From: an uncultured Gammaproteobacteria bacterium
Lineage (GTDB): Bacteria > Patescibacteriota > Patescibacteriia > 2-12-FULL-60-25
Length of the DNA stretch: 64,000 nt
Assembly: GCA_964600845.1 (NCBI GenBank)
Contig: CAZRJW010000002.1
Location: 9,910-73,909, forward strand
Direction of reading: 5' to 3'
Numbering within the stretch: the first letter of the stretch is position 1; each line of letters starts with the position of its first letter. Shown here piece after piece: positions 25,468 to 45,731 of this stretch. Below the pieces are notes generated by a model. The model did no database searches. It saw nothing but the letters and a program-made list of their open reading frames with translations, and had not been told where the DNA came from. Both the position numbers and the translations under genes were made by a program.

Positions 25468-25516
25468 CGCGGGGCAAAAAAAGCTGATAGATTAGCGCCC
25501 ATCAACTTACTTTCCC

Positions 25517-25948
25517 ATGCCTACTATTAACCAGCTGGTTCGACGCGCCCGCAAGCCATTGGCCGTCAAATCAAAGAGCCCTGCGCTCCAATTCAAGATG
25601 GACACGCTGCACCGCGTTCGCACGGAATACAAACGTGGATCCGGTTTGAAGCGTGGCGTATGTGTCAAAGTCACAACAATGACACCAAAAAAGCCAAACT
25701 CCGCTATTCGTAAAATTGCGCGTGTGCGCTTGTCGAATGCGCAGGAAGTAACTGCTTACATTCCTGGAGAAGGACACAACCTTCAAGAGCACTCGATCGT
25801 CTTGATTCGTGGAGGTCGCGTAAAGGACTTGCCAGGTGTGCGCTATCACATCGTGCGTGGTGTCTACGATACGCAAGGTGTCCAAGGTCGTCGTGGCAGC
25901 CGTTCTCTGTACGGTGCTCGTCGTCCAAAGGAAGACAAGAAGAAATAA
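25517..25948 (+). CDS. rpsL: 30S ribosomal protein S12
   Basis: [13 protein letters not shown]...[18 protein letters not shown]... Confidence 0.97.
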
Positions 25949-25971
25949 TTTTCAGTCTTTGATATTCAATT

Positions 25972-26439
25972 ATGCGCGGAAAGAAAGCCCCTCGTCGCAA
26001 GGTTGCGAACGACCCAAAGTACAACAATGCGGTCATCACCAAGTGTATTAACTACTTGATGATCGGCGGAAAGCGTCAGCTTGCTCAGAAGATTGTCTAC
26101 GGAGCATTGGCTATCGCTGAAGAAAAGCTTCAGAAGCCAGCTGCCGAAGTCTTCGATGAAGCGATGAAGAATGTTTCCCCAATGCTCGAGGTTAAATCTC
26201 GCCGCGTGGGTGGAGCGAACTACCAAGTTCCTCTCCAGGTGCGCGCCGATCGCCGTGTGCAGCTCGCGTTGCGCTGGATGATCACCGCCGCTCGTTCTCG
26301 CAAGGGAAAGCCAATGATCGAGAAGCTCGCAACAGAGTTCATCGACGCTGCGCAGAACCAAGGTGAAGCGGTTCGCAAGAAGACGGACGTACAGCGCATG
26401 GCCGAAGCCAACCGCGCCTTCGCTCACTTCGCCAAGTAA
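25972..26439 (+). CDS. rpsG: 30S ribosomal protein S7
   Basis: DPKYNNAVITKCINYLMIGGKRQLAQKIVYGAL...EVKSRRVGGANYQVP. Confidence 0.97.
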   Translation: MRGKKAPRRKVANDPKYNNAVITKCINYLMIGGKRQLAQKIVYGALAIAEEKLQKPAAEVFDEAMKNVSPMLEVKSRRVGGANYQVPLQVRADRRVQLALRWMITAARSRKGKPMIEKLATEFIDAAQNQGEAVRKKTDVQRMAEANRAFAHFAK

Positions 26440-26460
26440 CAGATTATTTAGTGGATACCG

Positions 26461-26513
26461 AGTAGCTAGTAGCGAGTAGCAACCGAAAGCGCTACACCTA
26501 CTAGCTACTTTTG
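26461..26513 (+). terminator. long hairpin plus T-run between rpsG and fusA
   Basis: agtagctagtag (26461-72) pairs with ctactagctact (26499-510); inner gtagc/gctac pairing; followed by tttt. Confidence 0.5.
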
Positions 26514-26555
26514 CTCTTAGCCAGCTCATCTCTCATCTTCTCTCACTCCATTCGT

Positions 26556-28637
26556 ATGCCCCGTGAATATTCATTGAAAGATACCCGCAACTTCGGAATC
26601 ATCGCTCACATCGATGCAGGAAAGACTACTGTGTCTGAGCGTATTTTGTTTTATACAGGAAAGAAGCACAAAATTGGGGAAGTGCACGAAGGTGAAGCGA
26701 CGATGGACTGGATGGAGCAGGAGCAAGAGCGCGGAATTACGATTACGGCTGCTGCGACAACCTGTTACTGGAAAGGCTCGCGCATGAACTTGATCGACAC
26801 TCCAGGACACATCGACTTCACGATCGAAGTACAGCGCTCGCTTCGCGTACTTGATGGAGCTGTAACTGTGTTCGACGGTGTGGCTGGCGTAGAATCACAG
26901 TCCGAGACGGTGTGGCGTCAGGCGGACAAGCACAACGTGCCTCGTATTTGTTTCATCAACAAGCTCGACCGCATGGGGGCTAACTTCTACAACGACGTGA
27001 AATCGATTCACGATCGTTTGACGAAGAATGCACATCCAATTCAGCTGCCGATCGGTGCAGAAGAAAACTTCATCGGGATCATCGACCTCGTGCGTATGAA
27101 GGCCGAGATGTATAGCGATGAAATGGGTCAGAACATCGCCGAAGTTGAAATTCCAGAAGACATGATGGAGAAGGCGAAAGAGTATCGCGCAAAAATGATT
27201 GAAGCGATTTCTGAGACGGACGAAGACATGATGAATCGCTATCTCGCAGGTGAGGAGTTCACGGTTGAAGAGATCAAAGCTGGGATCCGCCGCGCAACAA
27301 TCGCGAACCAGATCAACCCAATTTTGTGTGGCTCAGCGTTGAAGAACAAGGGCGTACAGTTCTTGCTCGACGCGATCGTGGACTATCTCCCATGTCCATT
27401 AGACATCCCTCCGACAAAAGCAACAGAAGTTGATGACCTCGATGTCTCTTTGGCGATCACTCCACAAGACAGCGAACCATTCGCAGCCTTGGCCTTCAAA
27501 GTCATGGCCGATCCATTCGTCGGAAAACTGATTTTCTTCCGCGTCTACTCCGGAATGTTGTCTGCTGGATCTTATGTGATCAATGCACGTACAGGGGAGA
27601 AAGAACGTATTGGTCGCATCGTCCGCATGCACGCGAACGATCGTGAAGAAGTTTCAGAGGTTTTCTCTGGCGACATCGCCGCTGCTGTAGGATTGAAAGG
27701 AACGTTGACAGGGGACACGCTCTTCGACGAGAAGCGTCCATTGAAACTTGAATCGATCGTCATTCCAGAGCCAGTTATCTCGCTCGCGGTTGAACCAAAG
27801 ACAAAGGCTGACCAAGAGAAGATGGGTGTCGCGTTGCAGAAGTTGGGTGAAGAAGATCCTTCCTTCCGTGTACGTACCGACGAAGAAACGCTTCAGACCA
27901 TTATCAGCGGGATGGGTGAATTGCACCTTGAAATCATCGTTGATCGCATGAAGCGCGAATTCAAAGTGGATGCGACGGTTGGTAAGCCACAGGTTGCCTA
28001 CCGCGAAGCCTTGAAGGGGTCAGCAGAAGGAGAAGGAAAATATATTCGTCAGTCTGGTGGTCGTGGTCAGTACGGTCACTGTGTGATCACGGTTGAACCA
28101 AACGAGCGCGGCAAGGGCTACGAATTCGTTGATAGCATTAAGGGTGGTGTGATTCCTCGTGAATTCATCCAGCCAATCAACAAGGGTATTCAAGAGGCGA
28201 TGTTGCGTGGTGTGTTAGCTGGTTACCCAATGCTCGATGTGAAGATCACGTTGACTGATGGAAGCTACCACGATGTTGACTCGTCCGAAGCCTCTTTCAA
28301 AGTCGCTGGATCACTTGCCTTCCAGGATGGTTGTCGCAAGGGTGGTGTCGTCATTCTTGAGCCAGTCATGAAAGTCGAAGTTGTCACCCCAGAAGCGTTC
28401 ATGGGTGATGTCATCGGTGACTTGAATGCCAAGCGTGGACAGATCGAAGATGTGGCAGACCGTTCGAGCGTGAAGGTCATTCGCGCCTTGGTCCCACTCG
28501 CTGAAATGTTCGGCTACTCGACCTCGCTTCGCTCTATGACCCAGGGTCGCGCCAGCTCCACCATGGAATTCGGCCAGTACGAAGAAGTCCCAAACAACAT
28601 CTCGAAGATCATCATCGAAGGTCGCACCAAGAAATAA
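26556..28637 (+). CDS. fusA: elongation factor G
   Basis: [25 protein letters not shown]...DTPGHIDF...NKLDR. Start set at ATG 26556. Confidence 0.97.
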
Positions 28638-28670
28638 GACGCACAGAACCGATCAATGGTTCGAACGAAG

Positions 28671-28706
28671 CCCAGCCTCTGGCAGTACGCCTCAGGCTGG
28701 GTTTTC
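28671..28706 (+). terminator. intrinsic terminator after fusA
   Basis: cccagcct...aggctggg followed by tttt. Confidence 0.5.
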
Positions 28707-28736
28707 GGTTCGTGACGGGTAGGGTAGGCTGCTGCC

Positions 28737-29210
28737 ATGGCTATACCTGCACTGACCCGGCTGTTCGAGCTTGTCCACCGTACCCGTCTACCTCTCATCG
28801 TTCAGTCTTCGGATGCAAGCGAACCCTGCGTTGTCCTTCCTTTGAGCGTCTACGAAAAGTTGGTGGGTGGAGCGCCCGAAATTTTGATAGGGGATGAAAG
28901 TCAGCCTCTCCCCGTCGCCGACCCTCAAGTATCGTTGGCGGACTTCATGACACCTGCTTCAAATCGCTCGTTCACGATGTCGAGTGGTACACTTGATCAT
29001 TCGGAGCTAGAATCTGGAAACAGCCTACGGCTTCAAGATTTACTTCAGGTCCAGGCTGAAATTCCCGTTAAATCGACAGTATCCGCAGTTCTTCCCCAGA
29101 TGGGTTCGGTGGAAGACCGCTTTGCTTTTGATGGGCTTGATGTAAGAATTTTGCCTAAAACAAGGCAAAAAATAGGTGGCATGCAGGACGCCCTTGACGG
29201 AAGTGGGTAG
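28737..29210 (+). CDS. hypothetical protein inserted between fusA and tuf
   Basis: 157-aa ORF. The N-terminal ~45 aa (LFELVHRTRLPLIVQSSDASEPCVVLPLSVYEKLV) are reminiscent of the Phd/YefM antitoxin fold; the rest looks disordered. No partner toxin ORF. Confidence 0.45.
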   Translation: MAIPALTRLFELVHRTRLPLIVQSSDASEPCVVLPLSVYEKLVGGAPEILIGDESQPLPVADPQVSLADFMTPASNRSFTMSSGTLDHSELESGNSLRLQDLLQVQAEIPVKSTVSAVLPQMGSVEDRFAFDGLDVRILPKTRQKIGGMQDALDGSG

Positions 29211-29214
29211 ACTC

Positions 29215-29243
29215 TTGCCTGAAATCAACACCTTTGTTATCAT
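29215..29243 (+). promoter_or_regulatory. candidate promoter for tuf (TTGCCT-17 nt-TATCAT)
   Basis: ttgcct 29215-20, 17-nt spacer, tatcat 29238-43. Confidence 0.3.
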
Positions 29244-29290
29244 CATGCCACTCATAATTACGTATTTTTAGTCTTATTTGACCTGCTCCT

Positions 29291-30481
<1,191 letters not shown>

Positions 30482-30489
30482 GCTAAACC

Positions 30490-30550
30490 GGGGAGGTTCC
30501 CCGCCTCGTAAAGAGCATCTCGCATGTTCTACGAGGTGGGGAACCTCCCC
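30490..30550 (+). other. 21-bp-stem hairpin between tuf and rpsJ, no U-run (RNA processing/stability or translational element)
   Basis: ggggaggttccccgcctcgta (30490-510) pairs with tacgaggtggggaacctcccc (30530-550), with one G.U. It ends 10 nt before the rpsJ ATG. Confidence 0.5.
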
Positions 30551-30560
30551 TCCATTGCAC

Positions 30561-30911
30561 ATGTCCGATATCAAGACAAAGGCAGCCCCAGTAGTGAAAA
30601 CAGCGGGAGCACAGCGCGTGCGGATTAAGATCCGTGCCTATGATCATAAGATCATTGACCAGGCGACTCGCATGATCATCGAAACGGCTGAACGGAATGG
30701 TGGGAAAGTGATCGGCCCGATCCCGTTGCCGACAGAAAAGAAGAAGTGGACCGTCAACCGTTCCACGTTCATCTACAAGGACGCTCGTGAGCAGTTTGAA
30801 ATGCGCATCCATAAGCGCATTGTCGACATCTTGGACCCAAATCCAAAGACGATCGATTCGCTCACCTCTCTCAACCTCCCAGCGGGTGTTGATGTAGAGA
30901 TCAAAATGTAA
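30561..30911 (+). CDS. rpsJ: 30S ribosomal protein S10
   Basis: [40 protein letters not shown]. Confidence 0.95.
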
Positions 30912-31046
30912 GAGTGAGTGGTTCCCAAGGAGAAAGTTGTCTGAAGGCTTACTTCAAAACGTGCTCGTTTAACGAGTACGTGACATAACCTCCCTGCAGT
31001 GAATCGTGAAGTTCCGAAACGTCGGTTCAGCCTACTCGAGGCTGAG

Positions 31047-31098
31047 ACCGGGAGTTTGGAGACAAACGATTGTCTGCAGACTCCCGGTTTTGTTTTTA
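31047..31098 (+). terminator. strong intrinsic-terminator-like hairpin inside the 213-nt rpsJ-rplC spacer
   Basis: accgggagt...actcccggt followed by ttttgttttt. Confidence 0.55.
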
Positions 31099-31124
31099 TC
31101 CATCCGCGACCAATCCGATCGCAT

Positions 31125-31730
31125 ATGAAATTCATCCTCGGTAAGAAACTCGAGATGTCGCAAATTTACGGAGCAGATGGAAATCTGATTCCCGTAACTT
31201 TAGTGCAGGCGGGTCCATGTGTTATCACGCAGGTTAAGACGAAAGAGACGGACGGCTACGAAGCAGTGCAGGTTGGATTTGGCACTTCCCGTACGCTGAC
31301 ACGTCCAGAGGCTGGTCACTTGAAAGATCTTCCTCAAGCTCCTCACTTGTGCGAATTCCGGTTGTCAGATGTCGCGTCCTTCAAGCGTGGTGACGCGATT
31401 GAGGCAGCGGTCTTCCAGCCAGGTGATAAGGTAAACGTTCGTGGGACATCGAAGGGTAAGGGCTTTCAGGGTGTGGTGCGTCGTCATCACTTCCATGGTC
31501 ACCCAACGAGTCACGGTCACAAGGACCAAGAGCGTATGCCAGGTTCTATCGGTGCCGGTGGTGTTCAGCACGTGTTGAAAGGCCGCCGTATGGCCGGTCA
31601 CATGGGCGACGAATCGGTCATGGTGAAGAACTTAGTTGTCGTCGAAGTGCGTGAAGGGGGAATCCTTGCTCTGAAAGGAGCCGTTCCAGGAGCCCGTCAT
31701 TCTTTGATTGAAATCGTTTCCGCTTCCTAA
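31125..31730 (+). CDS. rplC: 50S ribosomal protein L3
   Basis: [32 protein letters not shown]...[14 protein letters not shown]. Confidence 0.95.
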
Positions 31731-31732
31731 AT

Positions 31733-32359
31733 ATGGCTAAGACATCGATCTACAACTACCAGGGTCAATCAGTCGGCCAGATGGAACTTCCGGACCGTCT
31801 GTTCGCTGTGACTCCAGATCCAGCTCTCGTGCACGAAGCCGTGATTGCTCAGCGCGCCAATGCACGTCATGCAATTGCTGCAACGCAAACCAAGGGAATG
31901 GTGCACGGAGGTGGAAAGAAGCCATGGAAGCAAAAGGGAACTGGTCGCGCCCGTCAGGGATCGATTCGTTCTCCTCAGTGGAAGGGTGGAGGCGTCGTGT
32001 TCGGTCCAAGTTCCGAACGCAACTTCTCGCTCAAGATGAACCGCAAAGCGAAGCGCAAGGCCTTGTCGATGGTCCTCACCGACAAACTTATGCGTGAAAA
32101 ACTCATTGTGCTCGAGACGATCATGAAAGAGCCAGTGAAGACCAAGACGTTCCTCGCGATGATGCAGAAGCTTCCTGTGGATCGCACAACGCTCATGGTG
32201 CTTGGTGGCTCGGATCCAGTCGCAGTTCGCATGGCTCGCAACCTTCCATCCGTGAAGGTCGTGACCGTCAACAGTTTGAACATGCTCGATCTCTTGACCT
32301 ACCGTTCCGTAGTCTTTTTGAAAGACGCTATTTCGGCGTTGGAACAGATCTACGCCTAA
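31733..32359 (+). CDS. rplD: 50S ribosomal protein L4
   Basis: GGGKKPWKQKGTGRARQGSIRSPQWKGGGVVFGP. Confidence 0.95.
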   Translation: MAKTSIYNYQGQSVGQMELPDRLFAVTPDPALVHEAVIAQRANARHAIAATQTKGMVHGGGKKPWKQKGTGRARQGSIRSPQWKGGGVVFGPSSERNFSLKMNRKAKRKALSMVLTDKLMREKLIVLETIMKEPVKTKTFLAMMQKLPVDRTTLMVLGGSDPVAVRMARNLPSVKVVTVNSLNMLDLLTYRSVVFLKDAISALEQIYA

Positions 32360-32368
32360 TATTCTCCT

Positions 32369-32785
32369 ATGGGAATTATTGACCGCATCCGCAAGCAGCC
32401 GGCTGACAAAGCCACGAAGGACGCTGCTGCTCCAAAGACAAAGAAGACGGCAAAGAAGCCAGAGGCTGATTTGTCCGTCAAAGCTCCTACAACCGTCCTT
32501 CCTTCTTGGATGTACTCCGTTGTTGGCGCGCCTCGCGTAAGCGAAAAGGCTTCCCGTTTAGTAACGGAAACCAACACCTACACCTTTAATGTGCCAATCG
32601 CTGCTGAAAAGGTTGCGATCCGCAAAGCGATTGAAGCTCGTTACGGCGTGAAGGTGGTCGCTGTACGCACGATTCGTGGCGCTGGAAAAGTCGTCCGCCG
32701 TGGACGCATTGAAGGTCGCCGCAATGCCTGGAAGAAGGCTTTGGTTGAGCTTAAACCAGGATCATCGATTGATCTCTCCGCGTAA
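32369..32785 (+). CDS. rplW: 50S ribosomal protein L23 with ~45-aa Lys/Ala-rich N-terminal extension
   Basis: Core VVGAPRVSEKASRLVTETNTYTFNV...AVRTIRGAGK, preceded by KQPADKATKDAAAPKTKKTAKKPEA. Confidence 0.9.
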   Translation: MGIIDRIRKQPADKATKDAAAPKTKKTAKKPEADLSVKAPTTVLPSWMYSVVGAPRVSEKASRLVTETNTYTFNVPIAAEKVAIRKAIEARYGVKVVAVRTIRGAGKVVRRGRIEGRRNAWKKALVELKPGSSIDLSA

Positions 32786-32790
32786 TTGTT

Positions 32791-33630
32791 ATGCCTATTA
32801 AGCAATACAAGCCTGTTACCAAAGGCCGCCGTTTCTCCTCGGTTCAGGATTTCTCCGACATCACGACCAACGAGCCAGAGAAAACGCTTATCTCGTTCCG
32901 CAAGAGCCGAGCAGGTCGTTCGAATGGAAAGATCACCGTTCGTCACCAGGGTGGTGGCAACAAGCGTTATACGCGTGAAATTGACTTCGTCCGTTCTCGC
33001 TACGACATCCCAGCGAAAATCGTTTCGATTGAATACGATCCAAGCCGTGGTGCCCGTATCGGTCTCGTGAACTACGCCGATGGTGTGAAGAGCTATATCC
33101 TTCTTCCATTCGGTTCAAAGGTAGGGGACACTATTGTGTCTTCGCGCACAGAAGCTGAAATCACGGTTGGAAACCGTTTGCCACTTGAAAAGATCCCTGT
33201 CGGTACGCAGGTCCACGGAGTTGAATTGAATCCAGAGCAGGGCGCAAAAATCGCTCGTGCTGCGGGAACATTGATCAGCTTCATGGCGATTGAAGGCGAC
33301 ACAGCTATTTTGAAGATGCCATCCGGCGAAGTCCGCAAGGTTCCAAAATCTTGCTCGGCAACCATCGGAACAGTTTCGAACCCAGACTGGCACTTGGTGC
33401 GCTGGGGAAAAGCTGGTCGTATGCGTCATCGTGGGATCAAGCCTACCGTCCGCGGTAAGGTGATGAACCCGGTCGATCACCCACACGGTGGTGGTGAAGG
33501 TAAGCATCCAATCGGTATGAAGTACGCCAAGACGAAGTGGGGTAAGCATGCGCTTGGTGTGAAAACACGTCGCACGCACCGCTCCTCTGATCGCCATATT
33601 CTTACCCGTCGTCGCGGGAATACGCTCTAA
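32791..33630 (+). CDS. rplB: 50S ribosomal protein L2
   Basis: RHQGGGNKRYTREIDF...MNPVDHPHGGGEGK. Confidence 0.97.
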   Translation: MPIKQYKPVTKGRRFSSVQDFSDITTNEPEKTLISFRKSRAGRSNGKITVRHQGGGNKRYTREIDFVRSRYDIPAKIVSIEYDPSRGARIGLVNYADGVKSYILLPFGSKVGDTIVSSRTEAEITVGNRLPLEKIPVGTQVHGVELNPEQGAKIARAAGTLISFMAIEGDTAILKMPSGEVRKVPKSCSATIGTVSNPDWHLVRWGKAGRMRHRGIKPTVRGKVMNPVDHPHGGGEGKHPIGMKYAKTKWGKHALGVKTRRTHRSSDRHILTRRRGNTL

Positions 33631-33636
33631 CCTCCT

Positions 33637-33948
33637 ATGTCACGTAGTCTTAAAAAAGGTGCTTTCACCGATGCCAAGCTTCTTGCAAAGGTCATCGCTC
33701 AGAAGGCTGGGGATAAAACCCCCATCAAGACGTGGTCTCGTGCTTCGACGATCACTCCTGAGATGGTCGGTAAAACAATGGCAGTCCACAATGGCAAGAT
33801 GCACATTGCGGTTGTTATCGTTGAGAACATGGTTGGACACAAGCTTGGAGAGTTCTCTCCAACGCGTAAGTTCGTTCGTCATGGTGGTAAATTAGCTAAG
33901 TCGGATGCTCCAGCGGCCAAGCCAGCTGCAGCTCCAGCTAAGAAATAA
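33637..33948 (+). CDS. rpsS: 30S ribosomal protein S19
   Basis: [12 protein letters not shown]...[30 protein letters not shown]. Confidence 0.95.
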
Positions 33949-33951
33949 TCT

Positions 33952-34377: not shown

Positions 34378-34382
34378 CCTCT

Positions 34383-36475: not shown

Positions 36476-36477
36476 CT

Positions 36478-36786: not shown

Positions 36787-36789
36787 CCT

Positions 36790-37329: not shown

Positions 37330-37341
37330 TCCAACGATCCT

Positions 37342-37527
37342 ATGGCTACTGAAGCTCAAATTGCCAAGTCCCGTCGCAAGCCGAAGTTTTCTTCGCGCCT
37401 TGTTCGACGCTGCTGGCGCTGCGGCCGCACCCACGGATTCATGCGCATCTTCGGACTCTGTCGTATCTGCTTCCGCGAGATGGCGAACCGCGGTGAAGTC
37501 CCAGGTGTGACCAAATCCAGCTGGTAA
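37342..37527 (+). CDS. rpsZ: 30S ribosomal protein S14, zinc-binding short type (type Z)
   Basis: 61 aa with [23 protein letters not shown] (CxxC...CxxC). Confidence 0.93.
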
Positions 37528-37538
37528 TATCCTACGTT

Positions 37539-37931
37539 ATGTCTACTGACCCGATTAGCGATTTCCTCACCCGTATCCGCAACGCACATCTCGTGCGTCA
37601 CGACGTGGTGACTGCTCCAAGTTCTCGCATCAAGCGAGCGATTGCCGATATCCTTCAGCGTGAAGGCTATATCGAATCTGTTGAAGAAAAGTCTGAAGGT
37701 GCGAAGCGTACGATCTCCGTTCGCTTAAAGTATGTCGGAAAGCTGCCAGCGATTCACCAGCTCACGCGTATTTCGAAGCCTGGCCGCCGCGTGTATCGCA
37801 AGAACGATGAACTTCCTCGCGTCCTGTCTGGACAGGGGATGGCGATCATCTCCACTTCCGTTGGTCTCATGACGGATCGTGAAGCGCGTGCTCGTAAGCT
37901 GGGGGGAGAAATCTTGTGTGAAATTTCCTAA
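37539..37931 (+). CDS. rpsH: 30S ribosomal protein S8
   Basis: MSTDPISDFLTRIRNA. Confidence 0.95.
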   Translation: MSTDPISDFLTRIRNAHLVRHDVVTAPSSRIKRAIADILQREGYIESVEEKSEGAKRTISVRLKYVGKLPAIHQLTRISKPGRRVYRKNDELPRVLSGQGMAIISTSVGLMTDREARARKLGGEILCEIS

Positions 37932-37940
37932 CCTCCGCTT

Positions 37941-38492
37941 ATGTCACGTATTGGAAAAAAACCAGTCCTCCTCCCTGCCGGCGTCGATGCCACCATCGAA
38001 GCAAAGCAGGTGACGATCAAAGGACCGAAAGGGACGCTGCACGTTGGTCTTCCAGCGGCGGCTAAGATTGAGATGCAAGCCGATCCTCGTGCGTTGCTTG
38101 TGACGGTTGCCCGTCCAGAGCACGTCGATGACCGCGCCATCTGGGGTCTTGTTCGTCAATTGCTCTCGAACGCCGTAGACGGTGTTCAGAAGCCATTCGA
38201 AAAGGCACTCGAATTCGTCGGGGTTGGATTCAAGGTCGCGCTCGAAGGCCGCAAGCTCATGATGGATCTTGGGTTCTCGCACCGCGTTCCCTTTGAGCTC
38301 CCAGAAGGAATCGATGGTAAAGTCGAGAAGCAGATTTTGACGCTCTCCGGCATCGACAAAGCCCTTGTTGGAGAAACAGCTGCTCGCATTCGTCGCAATC
38401 GTCCACCAGAGCCTTATAAGGGCAAAGGTGTGAAGTATGTTGATGAAGTAATTCGTCGCAAGGCTGGTAAGACAGCTAAGTCTGCTGGCTAA
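37941..38492 (+). CDS. rplF: 50S ribosomal protein L6
   Basis: MSRIGKKPVLLPAGVD...VGVGFKV. Confidence 0.95.
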   Translation: MSRIGKKPVLLPAGVDATIEAKQVTIKGPKGTLHVGLPAAAKIEMQADPRALLVTVARPEHVDDRAIWGLVRQLLSNAVDGVQKPFEKALEFVGVGFKVALEGRKLMMDLGFSHRVPFELPEGIDGKVEKQILTLSGIDKALVGETAARIRRNRPPEPYKGKGVKYVDEVIRRKAGKTAKSAG

Positions 38493-38498
38493 CCCCTT

Positions 38499-38861
38499 AT
38501 GAAGATCTCCCTAGCAAACCAACAAAAGGCGCGTCGTATCGCACGTGTTCGCGCGACCATTTCCGGAACAGCTGAGCGTCCACGTCTCGCTGTCTTCCGC
38601 AGCCTCGCGCATATTTCTGCGCAGGTGATTGATGATACTTCCGGCAAAACTCTTGCCGCTGTCCGTGATGTCGAATTGTCCGAAGCAGAACGCAAAGGCA
38701 AGAAGAAGCTTGAAATTGCGAAGGCTGTCGGAATGCTTCTCGGAACGCGTGCCATGGAAAAGGGTGTGAAAGCGGTCGTCTTCGATCGTCGCGATAAGAA
38801 ATACCACGGTCGTGTTCGTGCTCTCGCTGAGGGCGCGCGCGAAGCGGGTCTCACATTTTAA
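38499..38861 (+). CDS. rplR: 50S ribosomal protein L18
   Basis: RPRLAVFRSLAHISAQVIDD...YHGRVRALAEGAREAGL. Confidence 0.95.
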   Translation: MKISLANQQKARRIARVRATISGTAERPRLAVFRSLAHISAQVIDDTSGKTLAAVRDVELSEAERKGKKKLEIAKAVGMLLGTRAMEKGVKAVVFDRRDKKYHGRVRALAEGAREAGLTF

Positions 38862-38864
38862 TCT

Positions 38865-39674
38865 ATGATGAACGAAGAACAGCAACCAACCTCCGCGCCA
38901 GAGGCGCCAGAAGCAGCAGCTGCTCCAGCTGCTGAAAACACAGCCGCTCCAGCGGCAGCGGCGGCAACGCCAGCTGCAGCTCCTGCGTCTGCTTCGGCTG
39001 CAGCACGTCCATATGGTGGAGGTGCCCGTGGTCCAGGCGGTGGCTTCCGTGGCGGAAGCCGCGGTCCAAGCGGAGGTGCTCGTGGCGGCCAGGGTGGTCG
39101 CGGCGGTGCTGCCGGTGGTCGTGGAGGTCGAGGTCCAGGCGGCCCAGGTGGTCGCGGTGGACGTCGCGATGGTCAGTCTGGAGATGTTCCAGCCGAAGCC
39201 GACTACGACGAAAAGAACTTGGAAGTCTCACGTGTTACACGTGTGACCCAGGGTGGAAAGCGCATGCGCTTCCGCGTGTTGAGCGTGATCGGAAACCGCA
39301 AGGGACGTGTTGGATATGGCTTGGCAAAAGGATTGGATGTCGCAGCTGCTTCCACCAAGGCCGCAACCAAAGCACGCAAAGCCCTTCTGACAGTTCCACT
39401 CATCAACGAAACAATTCCTCACATGGTGCGTGCAAAGGCGGGTGCCGCTGTCGTCTTGTTGAAGCCAGCGCCAAAAGGAGCTGGAATCAAAGCCGGTGGT
39501 GCAACGCGTGCCGTACTTGAAATCGCTGGTGTACCAAACGTTGTTTCGAAGCTCCTCGGATCTTCCAACAAGGTGAACGTCGTGCGCGCAACTTTTGCCG
39601 CCCTGCGCATGCTCCGCATGCCAATCAGCAAGACGGACGATAAACAGCCTAAGGAAGACGCTCCAAAGGCCTAA
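38865..39674 (+). CDS. rpsE: 30S ribosomal protein S5 with ~105-aa Ala-rich plus RGG-repeat N-terminal extension
   Basis: Core VSRVTRVTQGGKRMRFRVLSVIGNRKGRVGYGLAK..., preceded by AAAPAAENTAAPAAAAATPAAAP...GGARGPGGGFRGGSRGPSGGARGGQGGRGGAAGGRGGRGPGGPGGRGGRRDG. Confidence 0.93.
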   Translation: MMNEEQQPTSAPEAPEAAAAPAAENTAAPAAAAATPAAAPASASAAARPYGGGARGPGGGFRGGSRGPSGGARGGQGGRGGAAGGRGGRGPGGPGGRGGRRDGQSGDVPAEADYDEKNLEVSRVTRVTQGGKRMRFRVLSVIGNRKGRVGYGLAKGLDVAAASTKAATKARKALLTVPLINETIPHMVRAKAGAAVVLLKPAPKGAGIKAGGATRAVLEIAGVPNVVSKLLGSSNKVNVVRATFAALRMLRMPISKTDDKQPKEDAPKA

Positions 39675-39685
39675 TCTCACCTGCT

Positions 39686-40153
39686 ATGTCATTAAGTCTT
39701 CACACAATTGCCCCGAACGTAGGCTCACATGAGCGCTCGTTCCGTATCGGTCGTGGTCACGGCTCCGGTCGTGGCAAAACGGCAGGTAAGGGAACAAAGG
39801 GTCAGAAGTCCCGTTCCGGTGGAAAGGGTGGCTTGAAAATGCACGGCATGAAGCAGATGCTTCTCTCCTTCCCAAAGGTCCGTGGGTTTAAGAGCTTTGC
39901 GTCGAAGTTGGTCTCGATTCCTGTTCAGCGCTTGGATGTATTTCCAGAAGGAACGACGATTGACTTGAAAGCCATGCATGCAGCCGGTCTCTTGCATCGC
40001 GGAGAACATACCGTCAAAATTATTGGGGGAACAGCTCCAACGCACAAACTGACAGTTGTCGGCTTGCGTATGACTGCTTCTGCGAAGGAATTGATCGAGA
40101 AAGCTGGTGGATCGGTCGTTGCTGGTGACAGAAAGAAAAAGAAGACTGCCTAA
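39686..40153 (+). CDS. rplO: 50S ribosomal protein L15
   Basis: RIGRGHGSGRGKTAGKGTKGQKSRSG. Follows rpsE after 11 nt, so there is no rpmD/L30. Confidence 0.95.
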   Translation: MSLSLHTIAPNVGSHERSFRIGRGHGSGRGKTAGKGTKGQKSRSGGKGGLKMHGMKQMLLSFPKVRGFKSFASKLVSIPVQRLDVFPEGTTIDLKAMHAAGLLHRGEHTVKIIGGTAPTHKLTVVGLRMTASAKELIEKAGGSVVAGDRKKKKTA

Positions 40154-40192
40154 TTCCGTGTCTTTCCCTCGAAGCTGAGGGAAGATTCCTCT

Positions 40193-41470
40193 ATGTGGGA
40201 CAAACTCCTTCGTGCGTGGCAGGTCAAAGAGGTTCGACATGGGTTGCTGTTCGTGATCGCCATGATGGTGATCTTCCGAGTAGTCGCTCATATTCCGTTG
40301 CCTGGTGTTGATCTTGCAGCGCTCCAACAGTTTTTTGACGCGAACCAAGTCTTGGGTGTCTTGAACTTGTTCTCAGGTGGAACGATCCGAACATTCAGCA
40401 TTGTGGCGTTGGGTGTCGCTCCATACATCACCGCTTCGATTATCTTGCAGCTCTTGGCAGTCATCATCCCTCGTTTGGAAGAGATCCAGAAAGAAGGAGA
40501 AAGCGGCCAGCGTAAGATCAATCAGTGGACACGTCTTCTGACGGTTCCGCTTGCGCTGATTCAAGGAGTAGGGCTTCTGACGCTTATGCGTCAGTCGCAG
40601 GTGCCTATCTTGACCAGAACGGATCCGGTTCACATCGCTGCCATCTTGATCGCCGTCACAGCAGGAACCTTGTTCCTCATGTGGATTGGCGAATTGATCA
40701 GCGAAAAGAAAGTCGGAAATGGTGTTTCCTTGTTGATCTTCGCGGGTATTTTGGCGGATCTTCCAAGTTCGCTTGGACAGTTCATCACAACCTTCGATTC
40801 GTCACAGTGGATCATCGTCTTCATCTACGCAGCGATTGCGATTTTGATGGTTGCGGGTGTAGTCTTCGTTACAGAAGGTCAGCGCAACATTCCAATCCAA
40901 CACGCGCGCAGTGTTCGTGGGCAGGCTGGGTCAACAGGTGGAGTAGCCTCGAGCTTGCCACTTCGTGTGAATATGGTGGGTGTGATGCCGATTATCTTCG
41001 GTATTTCATTCCTCACGTTCCCAACCATGTTGGCGCAGCTCTTCGCTCAGGCGAATAATCCAAGTCTGCGCAGTGCAGCTGCCTGGATCCTGACGACGAT
41101 GCAAAACCAAACGATCTACGCCATTCTGTACCTCGCGCTGGTTGTCGGCTTTACCTATTTCTACACGGCGGTTGTGTTCCATCCAGAACGGGTGGCAGAG
41201 AATCTCCAGAAACAAGGAGCCTTCATCCCGGGTATCCGCCCAGGCCCTCCAACGGCCAGCTACTTGGAAGGAATCGTTGGTCGCATGACATTAGCCGGAG
41301 CCATCTTCTTGGGTCTTATCGCGGTGCTGCCAATTGTCGCTCAAGGGCTGACAGGGACGCAGACATTGGCGATTGGAGGAACCTCTATGTTGATCGTCGT
41401 GTCGGTTGTGATCGAATCTGTGAAACAGATTCAGTCACAGTCAACGATGCGCGAATACGATACGTACTAA
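40193..41470 (+). CDS. secY: preprotein translocase subunit SecY
   Basis: 10-TM protein; ...LNLFSGGTIRTFSIVALGVAPYITASII... Confidence 0.97.
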   Translation: MWDKLLRAWQVKEVRHGLLFVIAMMVIFRVVAHIPLPGVDLAALQQFFDANQVLGVLNLFSGGTIRTFSIVALGVAPYITASIILQLLAVIIPRLEEIQKEGESGQRKINQWTRLLTVPLALIQGVGLLTLMRQSQVPILTRTDPVHIAAILIAVTAGTLFLMWIGELISEKKVGNGVSLLIFAGILADLPSSLGQFITTFDSSQWIIVFIYAAIAILMVAGVVFVTEGQRNIPIQHARSVRGQAGSTGGVASSLPLRVNMVGVMPIIFGISFLTFPTMLAQLFAQANNPSLRSAAAWILTTMQNQTIYAILYLALVVGFTYFYTAVVFHPERVAENLQKQGAFIPGIRPGPPTASYLEGIVGRMTLAGAIFLGLIAVLPIVAQGLTGTQTLAIGGTSMLIVVSVVIESVKQIQSQSTMREYDTY

Positions 41471-41491
41471 TCGAAAAAAGACATACACGGT

Positions 41492-41525
41492 ACACAATGA
41501 GAACCCACCAGGGTTCTCATTGTGT
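41492..41525 (+). terminator. hairpin after secY
   Basis: acacaatgagaaccc-acca-gggttctcattgtgt (15-bp perfect stem); weak T-run. Confidence 0.5.
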
Positions 41526-41551
41526 ATTCTGACATGGTAGGCTTCCTGTAT

Positions 41552-41908
41552 ATGACCCCTCAATACACCGATGCCACTCAATTTCTTGGGAAGAGCGTTA
41601 CGGTTCTTATTGATCGCCCTCTCGGAACCAAGCACCCGAAATATGGGTATAAATACCCCATTAATTACGGCTTTATAGAGGGAACAATTTCTCCCGATGG
41701 CCGTGAGTTAGATGCCTATGTTCTCGGGGTAGATGAGCCGGTAGGGGACTTTACCGGACATTGCATTGCCTTTATCCGCCGAATTAATGCTCCGGATGAT
41801 AAGCTGATCATTGTTCCTGAAGGAAAAACCTTTTCTCAGGAGGAAATTCGTGAAGCGACACACTTCCAAGAGCAGTTTTTTCAGACGGAAATCATCTTCC
41901 CATCGTAG
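41552..41908 (+). CDS. short inorganic-pyrophosphatase-family protein
   Basis: INYGFIEGTISPDGRELDAYVLG resembles the family I PPase DG(D/E)xxD core in ~120-aa short homologues (from memory). Start ATG 41552, preceded by cttcctgtat. Confidence 0.5.
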   Translation: MTPQYTDATQFLGKSVTVLIDRPLGTKHPKYGYKYPINYGFIEGTISPDGRELDAYVLGVDEPVGDFTGHCIAFIRRINAPDDKLIIVPEGKTFSQEEIREATHFQEQFFQTEIIFPS

Positions 41909-41992
41909 GAAGGTTGGCCTTTCTCCTGTTTCCAGAAAGCTTCAGACAGGAAGGTTGTCGGATGGGCTCATTTTGGCTATTCTTACGGGTAT

Positions 41993-43405
41993 ATGCAACG
42001 TGAAGATGGACATCTGTTCAAGCTCCTGCCGCCGCCAGCCCATCTGCCACAATACACCGACTCTGCGCTGAAGAGCGTGTCGTATTTTGGTCACACGAAC
42101 TTCGTCAGCGGACTCTATCGATCGCGGACGGTTTTTGGGATTAAGCGAACAGATCGTCGTCGTCACATCTACTTGATTGGGAAGAGCGGTATGGGGAAGA
42201 CGCGCCTGCTCGAGCAGTTGATTCGGTATGATATTGCTGCGAATGAGGGAGTAGGTGTCATCGATCCGCACGGAGACTTAGCTCGGACGCTTTTGGATTT
42301 TATTCCGAAATCGCGTATTCAAGATGTGGTTTACGTGGACCCAGCGGACGCTGAGCATCCAATTGCGTTTAACCCGTTTGCGCGTGTCGATGCGACCCAG
42401 CGTCAAAATGTAGCACAAGGACTGGTAGAAATTTTCAAGAAACAATTTACGAGCAGCTGGTCGCCGCGCATGGAGCACTTGTTCCGTTTTGCGACCTTGG
42501 CGATTTTAGAACACCCAGAAGGGACGTTGTATGAATTATTACGGTTGCTGACGGATGCACAGGCGCGTCAACAAACAATTTCGCATTTGACGGACGATAT
42601 TGTGAAGCGGTTCTTTGCGGTTGAGTTTGCGAGCTTTAGTCAGAAGTATGACCACGAAGCGATTACGCCGCTTACGAACCGGTTAGGGCAGTTTTTTGCT
42701 GATCCATTGCTGCGATCCATTTTTACGAAGAAAGAAAATAAGATCGATATTGAATCGATCATGAATGAAGGGAAGATTCTCATTGTGAACGCGTCGAAGG
42801 GGTTATTGGGTGAGGATAATAGCGCCCTCTTGGGAGCGTTTTTCCTGACAAAGATTAACCAGGTCGCGATGGCGCGTTCACGTGTTGATGAAGATGAGCG
42901 CCGAGAGTTCTATCTTTACGTGGATGAATTCCAGAATGCCGCGACACAATCGTTTTCTTCATTGTTTTCGGAATCACGTAAATACGCGGTGAATATCACG
43001 ATCGCAAACCAGTATCTTGGGCAGATTCCTCCTTCGCTGCTTGAAGCGATCTTTGGAAACGTGTCGACCTTGATCGCGTTCCGATTGGGAGGAGGGGACG
43101 CCGATCGGATTGCAAAAGAGTTTATGCCCCTCGTTGAGCCGCATGACCTCATTAACTTAGGTGCACGCGACTTTTATATTAAAATGTCGGTTGATGGGCA
43201 AACGACGGCGCCTTTTTCAGCACGAACGTTGGATGTCGTGCCAGCCAAGCAATCGTATGCAGACGCGGTGATTCAATTATCACGTACTCAGTACAGCGCT
43301 ACACGTACAAAAGAGATGCCCGCGATCATATCTTCGCCGTTTATCTCCTCGATTGAAACGGAAGAGATGTCGGCAGAGGAGCTCCTCCCTCCGCCGGTTG
43401 TGTAG
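41993..43405 (+). CDS. VirD4/TraD-like (coupling-protein-type) P-loop NTPase
   Basis: Walker A IGKSGMGKT; Walker B FYLYVDEFQN; NITIANQYLGQ. No N-terminal TM helix. Confidence 0.6.
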   Translation: MQREDGHLFKLLPPPAHLPQYTDSALKSVSYFGHTNFVSGLYRSRTVFGIKRTDRRRHIYLIGKSGMGKTRLLEQLIRYDIAANEGVGVIDPHGDLARTLLDFIPKSRIQDVVYVDPADAEHPIAFNPFARVDATQRQNVAQGLVEIFKKQFTSSWSPRMEHLFRFATLAILEHPEGTLYELLRLLTDAQARQQTISHLTDDIVKRFFAVEFASFSQKYDHEAITPLTNRLGQFFADPLLRSIFTKKENKIDIESIMNEGKILIVNASKGLLGEDNSALLGAFFLTKINQVAMARSRVDEDERREFYLYVDEFQNAATQSFSSLFSESRKYAVNITIANQYLGQIPPSLLEAIFGNVSTLIAFRLGGGDADRIAKEFMPLVEPHDLINLGARDFYIKMSVDGQTTAPFSARTLDVVPAKQSYADAVIQLSRTQYSATRTKEMPAIISSPFISSIETEEMSAEELLPPPVV

Positions 43406-43413
43406 CTGTCAGT

Positions 43414-44085
43414 ATGCCACGCAAGCGTGTTCGGGCCGTGTTATTCGGTCCCCAAGGAGCGGGAAAGACGACTCAGGCACAGTTATTGTCTGAGTGGTTT
43501 GGAGCAGCGTCCTTGAGCTCTGGACAGCTCTTGCGCGGAGAGATGGAAGAAGGAACGCCGCTCGGGCAATTGGTAAAGCGCTATGTCGAGCATGGGGTGT
43601 TGGCTCCGGACGAGGTGGTGAATGCTATTTTGCGGAAACGGTTAATGTTAGAGGCGGAATCAAAACAGGGGTTTTTCTTAGACGGATTTCCTCGAAACGT
43701 AGAACAAGCGGGGGACTTGGATAAGTATGTAAAGATTAATCTCGCGATTCATTTGAAGGTCTCGGATGCGGTGGCCGAATCTCGTATGTTGGGACGGCTC
43801 TTCTGCGAATCCTGTCAGGCGGTTTATCATGAAAAGTACGTTCCTGTTTTGAAGGCGGGGATCTGTACGATCTGTGGAGGCTCTGTAAAACGACGTCCAG
43901 ATGATGCAGATGACGGCTCGGTCCGTGACCGACTGCTCGCGTATCACTTTATGACCGAACCACTTGTGACCTATTACCGGCAGCAAGGAGTGCTTCTTTC
44001 GGTGAACGCTGACCAACCGATCCCTTTCTTGTTCCAGGAGCTCGTAAAGAAACTCACCAAGCTAGGATTTGTGCCGGGGCAATAA
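43414..44085 (+). CDS. adk: adenylate kinase (zinc-lid type)
   Basis: LFGPQGAGKTTQAQ; lid CESCQAVY...CTICGG. Confidence 0.93.
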   Translation: MPRKRVRAVLFGPQGAGKTTQAQLLSEWFGAASLSSGQLLRGEMEEGTPLGQLVKRYVEHGVLAPDEVVNAILRKRLMLEAESKQGFFLDGFPRNVEQAGDLDKYVKINLAIHLKVSDAVAESRMLGRLFCESCQAVYHEKYVPVLKAGICTICGGSVKRRPDDADDGSVRDRLLAYHFMTEPLVTYYRQQGVLLSVNADQPIPFLFQELVKKLTKLGFVPGQ

Positions 44086-44105
44086 TTCCAGTACACTCGC
44101 TCTCC

Positions 44106-44885
44106 ATGTCACTTATCAAAAATCCCCAAGAAATTGAGAAATTAAAGGCCGGAGGAATCATCCTCTCGGCGATTTTGCGTGAGTTGAAAGCGCTGTGTGT
44201 CGCTGGTGTTGAAACAGCCGAATTAGATGCGCTGGCGCAGAAGCGCATGGCGGAACATGGAGGACGACCCTCCTTCATGGGCTATACGGCTGCACGCGAG
44301 GCGCCTCCGTTTCCGGGAGCTGTTTGTATTTCAATCAATGAGGAAGTCGTGCATGGCTTACCGACGCCTTCACGCACGGTGAAGGAAGGCGATATTGTCG
44401 GCCTTGATATTGGGATGTGGTATGAGGGACTTGCGACCGATATGGCAACGACGGTGATCGTCGGAACGATTCCGGATGCGGTACGGACGTTGGTCGCAGA
44501 AACGCGCGCATCACTCGAAGTGGCACTGACCCAAGTGAAAGCAGGAAAGTGGATTCATGATATTGGAAATGCGATTGATGATTACCTCACACCCAAAGGC
44601 TACGGCATTGTGCGTGATCTCGTGGGGCATGGCGTTGGACATGCGATTCATGAAGATCCGCAGATTCCGCACTTCCGCGATCGCTATGCGCCCCGTGTAA
44701 AAATGCAGGAGGGGATGGTACTCGCGATCGAACCGATGGTGACGCTTGGAACATGGAAGGTGCGCGTGAAGCGAGACGGATGGACGATCGTTACCGCTGA
44801 TGGAAAACCAGCCGCGCATTTCGAGTTGTCTGTCGTTGTCACGAAGACGGGGTACGAGCTCGTCACTCCTTGGCCCGACGTTTAA
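44106..44885 (+). CDS. map: type I methionine aminopeptidase
   Basis: VVHGLP...DIVGLDIG...GHGVGHAIHEDP...LAIEPM. Confidence 0.95.
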   Translation: MSLIKNPQEIEKLKAGGIILSAILRELKALCVAGVETAELDALAQKRMAEHGGRPSFMGYTAAREAPPFPGAVCISINEEVVHGLPTPSRTVKEGDIVGLDIGMWYEGLATDMATTVIVGTIPDAVRTLVAETRASLEVALTQVKAGKWIHDIGNAIDDYLTPKGYGIVRDLVGHGVGHAIHEDPQIPHFRDRYAPRVKMQEGMVLAIEPMVTLGTWKVRVKRDGWTIVTADGKPAAHFELSVVVTKTGYELVTPWPDV

Positions 44886-44906
44886 ACACAGGACCGAAGC
44901 CTCTCT

Positions 44907-45731
44907 ATGCCAGAGCTTCCAGAAGTAGAAACTATTCGTCGCCAACTTGATCGGCGCCTGCGTGGGTCGACCTTAAAAAAGATTGAATTATTCCGCACAG
45001 GACGTGAACGTCCTACAGGGAAAACGTTTATTGATGCGCTCACCGGTCAAACGATTCACTCTATTGATCGCCGCGCGAAGCTTCTCATTTGGCGGCTTAA
45101 GAACGATCAAGCGGTCCTCGCACATTTAAAGATGACGGGGAAGTTTCTGTTTGTAGATCAGGGGTATGAGATAACCAAACATGATGCAATTCGGTTCACG
45201 TGTGAGGACGCGCAAGGAAAAGAGTTTTTTCTTGTTTGGAACGATGTGCGGAAGTTTGGGTTTATGGAGCTCGTATCAGCGGAGGGACTAAAAGCAAAGC
45301 TTGAAGCGTATGGTCCAGAACCACTCGAGGCTACGGCGCAAACATTAGCCGACTGTTTACGAACGCCAAAAACGCGCCTCTTGAAAGCGGCACTCCTTAA
45401 CCAGGGGTGCATTGCCGGGATTGGAAATATCTATGCTGATGAAGCGTGTCATCGCGTTGGAATTCATCCGCGTCGCACGCTGGGAGCGTTATCTGATGCG
45501 GAACGACTACGTTTAGCGGAGGCGATTCAGACGGTTCTCTCAGAATCGCTCGACCAACGCGGAACAAGCGCGCATACCTATCAGGATACTTCCGGCTCAA
45601 AAGGAGGATTCCTGTCGTTTCTTCGAGTCTATGGTCGAGAAGGGGAGCCCTGCCGTACCTGCGGTACGTCGATTCAAAAATTTCGCTTAGTTCAGCGAGG
45701 AACTCATATCTGTCCTAAGTGTCAGTCTTAG
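44907..45731 (+). CDS. mutM: formamidopyrimidine-DNA glycosylase
   Basis: MPELPEVETIRR. C-terminal zinc finger CRTCGTSIQKFRLVQRGTHICPKCQ. Confidence 0.93.
   Translation: MPELPEVETIRRQLDRRLRGSTLKKIELFRTGRERPTGKTFIDALTGQTIHSIDRRAKLLIWRLKNDQAVLAHLKMTGKFLFVDQGYEITKHDAIRFTCEDAQGKEFFLVWNDVRKFGFMELVSAEGLKAKLEAYGPEPLEATAQTLADCLRTPKTRLLKAALLNQGCIAGIGNIYADEACHRVGIHPRRTLGALSDAERLRLAEAIQTVLSESLDQRGTSAHTYQDTSGSKGGFLSFLRVYGREGEPCRTCGTSIQKFRLVQRGTHICPKCQS

Follow-up and report, generated by a model that had tools for sequence, protein, structure and literature searches.

The question raised by this locus is how translation starts are marked in genes that offer the ribosome no Shine-Dalgarno (SD) site. The locus is a 64-kb stretch of an uncultured bacterium's genome (contig CAZRJW010000002.1, positions 9,910–73,909 of the forward strand; hereafter the window) that carries a str-S10-spc block of ribosomal-protein genes. 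A first-pass annotation had described its native genes as lacking SD sites and as carrying instead a pyrimidine tract (CCTCC, CTCCT or CCTCT) directly abutting the ATG, with the letters of the anti-SD (aSD) of 16S rRNA and not of its complement. The upstream strings quoted there were all located at the named genes by direct look-up in the sequence. As the ATGs of the ribosomal-protein genes agree with the canonical conserved N-termini, these are real starts. The strongest and most informative start signal was found to be one that the annotation did not contain, namely a U at the position directly before the AUG, U(-1), or T(-1) in the DNA.

Start-site signals within the window

Signals were evaluated at 71 starts, with 730 internal ATGs from the same genes as background; for non-ribosomal genes the first ATG was used as start, which is possibly wrong in a few cases. 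T(-1) was observed in 54 of the 71 starts (76%; pyrimidine in 92%, A in 1%) compared to 118 of the 730 internal ATGs (16%; Fisher p=2.6e-25). In a corrected sample of 73 starts, in which two shadow open reading frames (ORFs) were replaced and secE, nusG and a NUDIX gene were added, the count was 57 (78%). The two discarded frames were a 415-aa ORF at 3684-4931 (-) with an apparent SD 'aaaggagggagtggATG', opposite the lipoprotein-like gene 3780-4847, and an ORF at 19785-20375 (+), opposite nusG. In the str-S10-spc block, where all 27 starts were anchored by homology, every start was ATG, 24 had T(-1) (89%) and a single one had an SD core.

The nucleotides in front of the start were further depleted of G, which made up 0.14 of positions -10..-1 at starts compared to 0.27–0.30 at internal ATGs (p=1e-17) and 28% of the whole window. 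The pyrimidine share at -8..-1 was 0.67 compared to 0.48 (p=1e-13; 71 vs 730), and the per-position table of the window starts showed the signal to be sharply position-specific. GGAG or GAGG at -18..-5 was present in 6% of starts and in 4–5% of internal ATGs, which bears out the reported lack of GGAGG-type sites in native genes. The tract had been reported for about 28 genes; CCTC, CTCC, TCCT or CTCT within -12..-1 was counted in 31 (44%), compared to 9–11% of internal ATGs, 23% of column shuffles and 26% of within-sequence shuffles (p<0.0005). Pyrimidine runs of 5 nt or longer abutted the ATG in 23% of starts and 3.8% of internal ATGs, and alternating CUCU, UCCU and CUCC were preferred to homopolymers in the tracts. 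An A-rich, Kozak-like context was not seen in the window clade, where A(-3) reached only 0.17–0.23 and C(-3) 0.35–0.48.

The pattern had first been placed at 25500–44910. It is present there and also outside, so that it is window-wide and the restriction to that range does not stand. A start at 12527 had been set apart as an exception; its AAGGAG does exist, 12 nt upstream and within the final codons of the gene before it, and the start otherwise follows the rule, with TAG, 7 nt ending in T, and ATG.

Predicted folding and hybridisation were evaluated on the same starts. The minimum free energy (MFE) of -20..+23 was -5.5 kcal/mol at starts and -8.3 kcal/mol at internal ATGs (p=3e-9), a sliding 30-nt window placed the structure minimum exactly on the start (position 0), and the unpaired probability at -10..+6 was 0.53 compared to 0.42. 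Potential competing starts were depleted two- to five-fold, with an NTG density at -10..+25 of 0.01–0.03 compared to 0.05–0.07 around internal ATGs. The predicted duplex of -22..-2 with the aSD (CACCUCCU) was weaker at starts than in the background (-2.1 vs -3.1 kcal/mol, p=0.002), in agreement with the earlier statement that a canonical CCUCC tail offers the tract no pairing partner. Two suggestions made at that time, an unstructured leader and selection against SD-like sequence, are likewise consistent with the predicted folding and hybridisation.

Comparison across related lineages and outgroups

The gene for uL30 is not found between those for uS5 (38865-39674) and uL15 (39686-40153), which adjoin directly. 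The closest relatives of the window uS3 were Patescibacteria metagenome-assembled genomes (MAGs; 83–89% identity), ahead of records named Candidatus Uhrbacteria (59–64%) and of Magasanik-, Falkow- and Kerfeldbacteria (~50%), with lower values for Saccharibacteria, Peregrinibacteria and bacteria outside the candidate phyla radiation (CPR). The uL30 gap and the CPR MAGs as closest uS3 relatives place the window organism in the Patescibacteria/CPR and in the neighbourhood of Uhrbacteria. The similarity of uS3, the gene content of the operon and the signature at the starts clearly identify as Patescibacteria a large number of species-representative MAG records with the title 'uncultured Gammaproteobacteria bacterium' (L006-L009, L011, L013, L014 and others), several of the closest relatives among them, and also record L055, titled 'Planctomycetota'; these titles are evidently mislabelled. 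The window itself has a GC content of about 52%, three tRNAs and no rRNA.

Comparison with related lineages, a check proposed in the first-pass annotation, was performed on the starts of the 27 operon genes, anchored by tblastn with the window proteins in 80 genome loci and 5 near-identical metagenome contigs. Lysobacterales, Dehalococcoidia and one Firmicute were treated by the same procedure as non-CPR outgroups, and an aSD duplex of -7 kcal/mol or below was counted as a strong SD. In the CPR groups the mean aSD duplex was +0.8 to -1.7 kcal/mol, strong SDs were found in 0–3% of genes, ATG was used in 92–100% of starts (98–100% except in a small Peregrinibacteria/Peribacteria set) and G at -10..-2 was 0.07–0.14. 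The outgroups differed on every count, with an aSD duplex of -7.0 kcal/mol, strong SDs in 44%, ATG in 81% and G at 0.34; the gene listing of the Firmicute shows textbook AGGAGG sites. SD-less, G-poor and nearly exclusively AUG-based starts were thus seen in every CPR lineage sampled, and they are a trait of the whole CPR sample and not of the window genome alone. T(-1) was graded across the groups. The window clade (0.90), other Uhrbacteria-like genomes (0.92 over 483 starts) and the Magasanik/Falkow/Kerfeld group (0.91) had the highest shares; the value was 0.74 for other Parcubacteria and fell through Saccharibacteria (0.57) and Peregrinibacteria (0.38) to the non-CPR outgroups (0.14).

The letters of the stretch itself varied. 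At -10..-2 the window clade had A.25, C.38, G.10 and T.27, whereas other Uhrbacteria had A.37, C.25, G.14 and T.25, with A at.42–.50 further out; an A peak at -5..-7 in relatives coincides with upstream TAA stops. A relative of 63% GC has A/C-rich spacers (ctaaccactATG) and low-GC relatives have A/T-rich ones (aaatattATG). Between close relatives spacer length and sequence vary while T(-1) is retained. Among genomes of ~90% identity, for example, the rpsS spacer reads TAAcctcct, TAAtctcct, TAAtattct or TAAtct, the last T always being kept. In relatives of ~90% protein identity changes affect ~30% of positions -8..-1, and 61% of those at pyrimidine sites leave a pyrimidine in place. The C/U flavour is thus limited to the subclade of the window, sister lineages placing A in the same stretch. 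As this flavour is restricted to one subclade and the spacers turn over fast, the resemblance of the tract to the aSD is most likely a coincidence, and no part of the finding has less support than the idea that the tract serves for recognition.

Proposed mode of initiation and alternatives

We consider it likely that the native genes are translated by SD-independent initiation aided by pairing of U(-1) with A37 of the initiator tRNA, that the identity of the tract with the aSD is a by-product, and that the aSD itself is probably kept. Depletion of G over the 10–12 nt before the AUG removes SD-like words and competing AUG, GUG or UUG, and lessens local folding. The 30S subunit would then land on an unstructured, NUG-free stretch, with the start set by codon-anticodon pairing that a fourth base pair, U(-1):A37, would probably reinforce. 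A37 is general in bacterial tRNAfMet, and quadruplet pairing between mRNA U(-1) and this nucleotide was reportedly described by Esposito et al. in 2003. In the subclade of the window the missing G is replaced mainly by C, which gives tracts that look like CCUCC, CUCCU or CCUCU, and in sister lineages by A; the identity with the aSD would then be a by-product of a G-free, C-rich stretch and no recognition element.

A wider claim is put forward tentatively, at somewhat less than even confidence. In Parcubacteria-type CPR the effective start signal may be UAUG, read by the initiator tRNA through its anticodon and A37 in a G-free landing pad. This signal would be near-obligatory and would replace SD pairing over a large part of the bacterial tree, the aSD perhaps being kept for a few atypical or acquired genes and the C/U-word preference of the subclade perhaps reflecting a clade-specific factor. 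Several points weigh against the proposed mode of initiation. The comparative data come mainly from ribosomal-operon genes, and close relatives are non-independent samples. The CT-words exceed position-specific or per-gene composition about two-fold, which leaves in the subclade an unexplained sequence preference beyond the absence of G. Avoidance of SD-like words inside genes was taken as a proxy for a functional aSD; GGAGG stood there at 0.79 of the codon-shuffled expectation and the control word CCTCC at 0.71. Finally, that the CCUCC tail and A37 have been retained in this lineage is something we infer.

Canonical SD-led initiation was rejected on the frequency of the SD core given above and on its presence in 1/27 operon genes compared to 40–95% in the non-CPR outgroups, and leaderless initiation because most starts, judged from sequence, belong to internal cistrons 1–12 nt past a stop or have leaders of 30–100+ nt. 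An origin of the pattern in the background base composition or a mutational bias of intergenic DNA, or in mis-called starts, is scarcely credible. The sense strand is indeed mildly pyrimidine-rich at fourfold degenerate sites (Y 0.54), some uncertainty attaches to a few starts outside the operon and two of the ORFs first used were shadow ORFs. G however amounts to 0.25 at sense-strand fourfold sites, 0.27 in other non-genic DNA and 0.25 at -60..-31, against 0.10–0.14 at -10..-1, and its depletion is therefore local and neither mutational nor compositional; the homology-anchored starts give the strongest signal, position specificity is sharp, and the same procedure recovers SDs in the outgroups. 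The first-pass annotation had allowed for this explanation and also for a pattern confined to spacers next to a TAA, which would be expected if terminating ribosomes re-initiated at the next AUG and short, signal-free spacers sufficed. We judge such a by-product of translational coupling improbable. Although 30 of the 71 starts follow the preceding gene within 30 nt, typically in the arrangement TAA, 1–10 nt and ATG, and T(-1) peaks in these tight spacers (0.87), the same features were observed at the other 41, which have 30 nt or more of intergenic DNA upstream (T(-1) 0.68; at -10..-2 Y 0.62–0.65 and G 0.13–0.20), including the first genes tuf, fusA, rpsL, thioredoxin and VIT. Coupling moreover predicts neither U(-1) nor the depletion of G.

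Two further explanations assign a function to the tract. S1 favours unstructured U/pyrimidine-rich RNA, and the leaders of the window are single-stranded and C/U-rich. The tract might thus be a site for bS1, or for another single-strand RNA-binding protein, that recruits the 30S subunit to pyrimidine-rich leaders, which would be compatible with the proposed mode of initiation; most CPR bS1 proteins have 3–4 S1 domains (PMC9297842). Many tracts however comprise just 1–8 nt from stop codon to AUG, too short for a multi-domain S1, and relatives have A-rich stretches instead, which makes this role unlikely. The other explanation is a new kind of SD, in which the C/U tract would pair with purine-rich rRNA, either an altered 16S 3' tail or a G/A-rich stretch near the mRNA exit or E-site. 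We hold it to be highly improbable. mRNA at -1..-8 lies in the E-site and exit channel. As the tract occupies these positions, is unconserved and has other letters in sister clades, a helix between tract and rRNA is unlikely, and the non-canonical rRNA-mRNA contact through CCUCC-like words envisaged in the first-pass annotation is not borne out. Abutting the AUG, the tract leaves no space for an SD-type helix. Neither words nor spacer lengths are conserved at ~90% protein identity, and the A-rich or A/C-rich stretches of sister Uhrbacteria would require rapid co-variation of the rRNA; an alternative SD/aSD pair was rejected on the same lack of conservation and the same position. The canonical SDs at 7–9 nt on three genes of the window argue for a canonical tail, and the presence of uL1 puts the genome outside the group reported to lack the aSD. 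Pairing with rRNA would nonetheless account for the two-fold excess of CT-words and for the alternating words preferred over homopolymers, and precedents exist in Parcubacteria reported without a canonical aSD (PMC9297842) and in the ASD/SD co-variation of Chryseobacterium-type Flavobacteriia (PMC7797042).

Genes with canonical Shine-Dalgarno sites and the anti-Shine-Dalgarno question

The three genes in question, a lipoprotein-like gene (3780-4847), gene 60429-61166 and a CTP_transf_1 gene (18286-19173), have no U(-1) and are the strongest outliers of the window in GC content at fourfold degenerate sites (GC4; Table 1, median 0.53), a result that upholds the division into native and foreign genes drawn earlier. 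Over all window genes GC4 and SD strength were uncorrelated (Spearman -0.05), only these three extreme outliers standing out. Two perfect SD 7-mers at SD distance among ~70 genes compare with ~0.03 expected by chance, by our own estimate. The SD of the 3780 family persists in a homologue of 78% identity with a different spacer and N-terminus, and that of the 60429 family in a homologue of 57% identity despite an altered flanking leader (aaaggagggatcttcccATG); for the latter family this homologue alone is informative, the genomes of L093-L097 being too close for conservation of the leader to count. The 3780 and 60429 families are clade-restricted orphans. The three SD genes are probably acquired genes, or else a small SD-dependent regulon. 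In the leader of gene 60429-61166 (61167-61272, -; L093-L098) CCC...GGG...CCC segments surround the SD (acCCCacaaGGAGGGttttCCCATG), so that alternative hairpins are possible, and this arrangement is retained in the 57%-identity homologue (CCCCtaaaGGAGGGatcttCCCATG), hinting at a possible structural switch over the SD.

The canonical 16S 3' tail is ...GAUCACCUCCUU. Rfam identified no rRNA in the window, none of the 85 loci contains a word from the 3' end of 16S rRNA, the matches to this word in viral contigs were all unrelated, and the 10 kb to the left of the window hold protein genes only. Neither an initiator tRNA-Met gene nor rpsU, rpsR or rpsF was found in the window or the comparison loci, and rpsA is not in the window. 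Both uL1 and uL11 are encoded in this genome, and the only Parcubacteria for which loss of the aSD motif has been reported form a subgroup overlapping with the lineages that lack uL1 (PMC9297842). Because uL1 is encoded and canonical SDs stand on three genes, the canonical aSD is probably still present in the 16S rRNA, which suggests that SD pairing may still be possible, although this falls short of proof. In Microgenomates, CPR2 and a Peregrinibacterium most of the published rpsU upstream regions contain AAGGAGGTG/AAGGGGGTG, whereas Prodigal gives these genomes as a whole None or TAA as motif (PMC7550191, supplementary file 1, sheet CPR_rbs_motif). These sequences parallel the rpsU-only SD of Flavobacteriia (PMC7797042) and suggest that a retained aSD may be under bS21-linked control in the CPR.

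Relation to known systems

SD-less bacteria, unstructured start regions, AUG depletion, the U(-1) effect and aSD loss in some Parcubacteria are each already known separately. The closest parallel is offered by the Bacteroidetes/Bacteroidia, as studied in Flavobacterium johnsoniae (Baez et al. 2019, PMC6847099; Jha et al. 2021, PMC7797042). There, too, SDs are absent genome-wide including ribosomal-protein genes, and a structure minimum at the start, AUG/NUG depletion and a few strong-SD genes are found as in the window; unstructured translation initiation regions depleted of AUG are taken to permit a simple landing of the 30S subunit (PMC6847099). The context differs, being A-rich and Kozak-like in Bacteroidetes (A-3, A-6, A-12/-13) and U(-1) with a G-free, C-rich stretch in the window. 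In Bacteroidetes the aSD is retained and sequestered by bS21, bS18 and bS6, with strong SDs on rpsU and rpsR (PMC6847099, PMC7797042). For Parcubacteria a frequent absence of bS21 has been reported. The ASD2 of Chryseobacterium and Riemerella (PMC7797042) likewise involves an upstream word other than GGAGG. That word, however, is complementary to an altered tail, lies at SD distance and is confined to rpsU, whereas the words described here abut the AUG, vary among relatives and occur on most genes.

Compensatory mutants of tRNAfMet have demonstrated quadruplet pairing of U(-1) with A37 in E. coli, after earlier evidence for it from Chlamydomonas chloroplasts (Hollerer & Jeschek 2023, PMC10018350). 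U is favoured there directly 5' of the AUG independently of folding, and U(-1) is the most informative position here too. In E. coli the effect is modest and modulatory, on top of the SD, whereas in the lineages examined here U(-1) is near-invariant (~90% of operon genes across >40 genomes) without an SD, the pairing with A37 being inferred.

Within the same superphylum Tsurumaki et al. 2022 (PMC9297842) arrived at the same conclusion, that SD helices are unused. Their evidence came from the rRNA side and a subgroup that overlaps the lineages without uL1; the present evidence comes from the mRNA side and a genome that encodes uL1, and SD-less starts were also found in groups said to keep the motif. 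The uL30 gap and the extended uS19, uL23 and uS12 of their Parcubacteria are also seen in the window. In published annotation of CPR genomes None, TAA or AAT stands in place of GGAGG as ribosome-binding site (RBS) motif (PMC6509639, PMC7550191), Prodigal giving 'TAA' for a Roizmanbacterium (PMC6509639). As in the window, TAA is the upstream stop a few nucleotides before the ATG; these motifs are annotation by-products, and U(-1), the depletion of G and the clade-specific C/U flavour are not described there. No description of the mRNA-side pattern (CPR-wide SD-less starts, near-invariant U(-1), G-free pad and C/U variant) was found in the searched Patescibacteria, Parcubacteria, Saccharibacteria and CPR literature on SD use.

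The CPR/Patescibacteria make up a very large, mostly uncultured share of bacterial diversity and have reduced ribosomes. If the proposed reading is true, gene finders and start predictors trained on SDs would misplace CPR starts, and expression constructs for tractable CPR organisms would need a U(-1)/G-free context instead of an SD. The CPR would also constitute a second independent natural experiment, beside the Bacteroidetes, on start choice without mRNA-rRNA pairing. A canonical SD together with no U(-1) and a high GC content at third codon positions (GC3) could serve as a simple compositional marker of recently acquired genes in CPR genomes.

Feature positions and further observations

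The positions of the starts, tracts and gene blocks are collected in Table 1.

Table 1. Gene blocks, start sites, SD-bearing genes and a hairpin, in window coordinates.
Feature	Position	Strand	Upstream string	Remarks
rpsL-rpsG-fusA-(ORF)-tuf-rpsJ-rplC...rplO-secY-(pyrophosphatase-like, TraG-like)-adk-map-mutM	25517..45731	+		str-S10-spc block; rpsL start 25517; secY 40193-41470
secE-nusG-rplK-rplA cluster	17.4-20.8 kb	-
secE	20384-20752, start 20752	-	cccctctATG	cccctct at 20753..20759
nusG	19806-20354	-		downstream of secE; T at -1
rplK	19330-19752	-		downstream of secE; T at -1
rplA	17390-18097	-		downstream of secE; T at -1
fusA	start 26556	+		ctcatctctcatcttctctcactccattcgt at 26525..26555, 31-nt C/U-rich leader with one G
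tuf	start 29291	+	cctgctcctATG	CCTGCTCCT at 29282..29290, end of 80-nt leader
rplW	start 32369	+	ttctcctATG	TATTCTCCT, spacer, at 32360..32368
rpsS	start 33637	+	taacctcctATG	CCTCCT at 33631..33636, from rplB stop (TAA 33628-33630) to ATG; TCTCCT, TATTCT or TCT in relatives
rpsC	start 34383	+	taacctctATG	CCTCT at 34378..34382, from rplV stop to ATG
rplE	start 36790	+	taacctATG
rplF	start 37941	+	taacctccgcttATG	CCTCCGCTT, spacer, at 37932..37940
rplR	start 38499	+	aaccccttATG
secY	start 40193	+	attcctctATG	ATTCCTCT at 40185..40192
map	start 44106	+	gctctccATG
mutM	start 44907	+	gcctctctATG	CCTCTCT at 44900..44906
ORF downstream of lexA	9146-9433, start 9146	+	cttcctcttctATG	cttcctcttct at 9135..9145
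hup	start 21651		tctcttATG
S2P	start 23182		cctctctttATG
helicase	start 54279	-	actcccccaatatATG
thioredoxin	58111-58653, start 58653	-	ctcctctctcacattctATG	ctcctctctcacattct, leader, at 58654..58670
VIT	start 59404		gatctcctATG
lipoprotein-like gene	3780-4847	+	AAGGAGGT	canonical SD at 3764..3771, 8 nt before ATG; GC4 0.88; aSD duplex -11.2 kcal/mol
CTP_transf_1 gene	18286-19173	+	GAGGAG	at 18271..18276, 9 nt before ATG; GC4 0.86; aSD duplex -7.2 kcal/mol
gene 60429-61166	60429-61166	-	AAGGAGG	canonical SD at 61175..61181, 8 nt before ATG; GC4 0.72; aSD duplex -10.5 kcal/mol
hairpin between tuf and rpsJ	30490..30550	+		very stable; 3' arm 'cctcccctcc'

The 'cctcccctcc' upstream of rpsJ had been listed among the examples of the tract; it is no free leader, as these letters form the 3' arm of the hairpin between tuf and rpsJ. 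The 61 nt of this hairpin are almost perfectly paired (MFE -53.6 kcal/mol, z=-9.2). As there is no U-run behind it, the hairpin does not qualify as a canonical intrinsic terminator; its role could be that of a processing or stability element or of an S10-operon leader.

Several ribosomal proteins of the window show CPR-type elaborations. uS5 has a ~110-aa Ala/Gly/Arg-rich N-terminal extension (38865-39200, +), uS19 an Ala/Lys-rich C-terminal tail (33860-33948, +), uS12 an internal insertion and uL23 an N-terminal extension. Between secY and adk lie two inserted genes (41534-43405, +), one pyrophosphatase-like and the other for a coupling-protein ATPase of the TrwB/TraG type (470 aa), and close relatives are alike in this respect. 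A 157-aa ORF between fusA and tuf (28737-29210, +) is without a Pfam family, is called in all near-identical contigs and breaks the U(-1) rule at its start (gctgccATG). The spacer between rpsJ and rplC is unusually long (213 nt) and contains a terminator- or attenuator-like element at 31048-31098 (+), in which a T-run comes after a G+C-rich stem (ccgggagt...actcccgg ttttgttttt); public gene calls differ on the start of rplC there (201 vs 243 aa).

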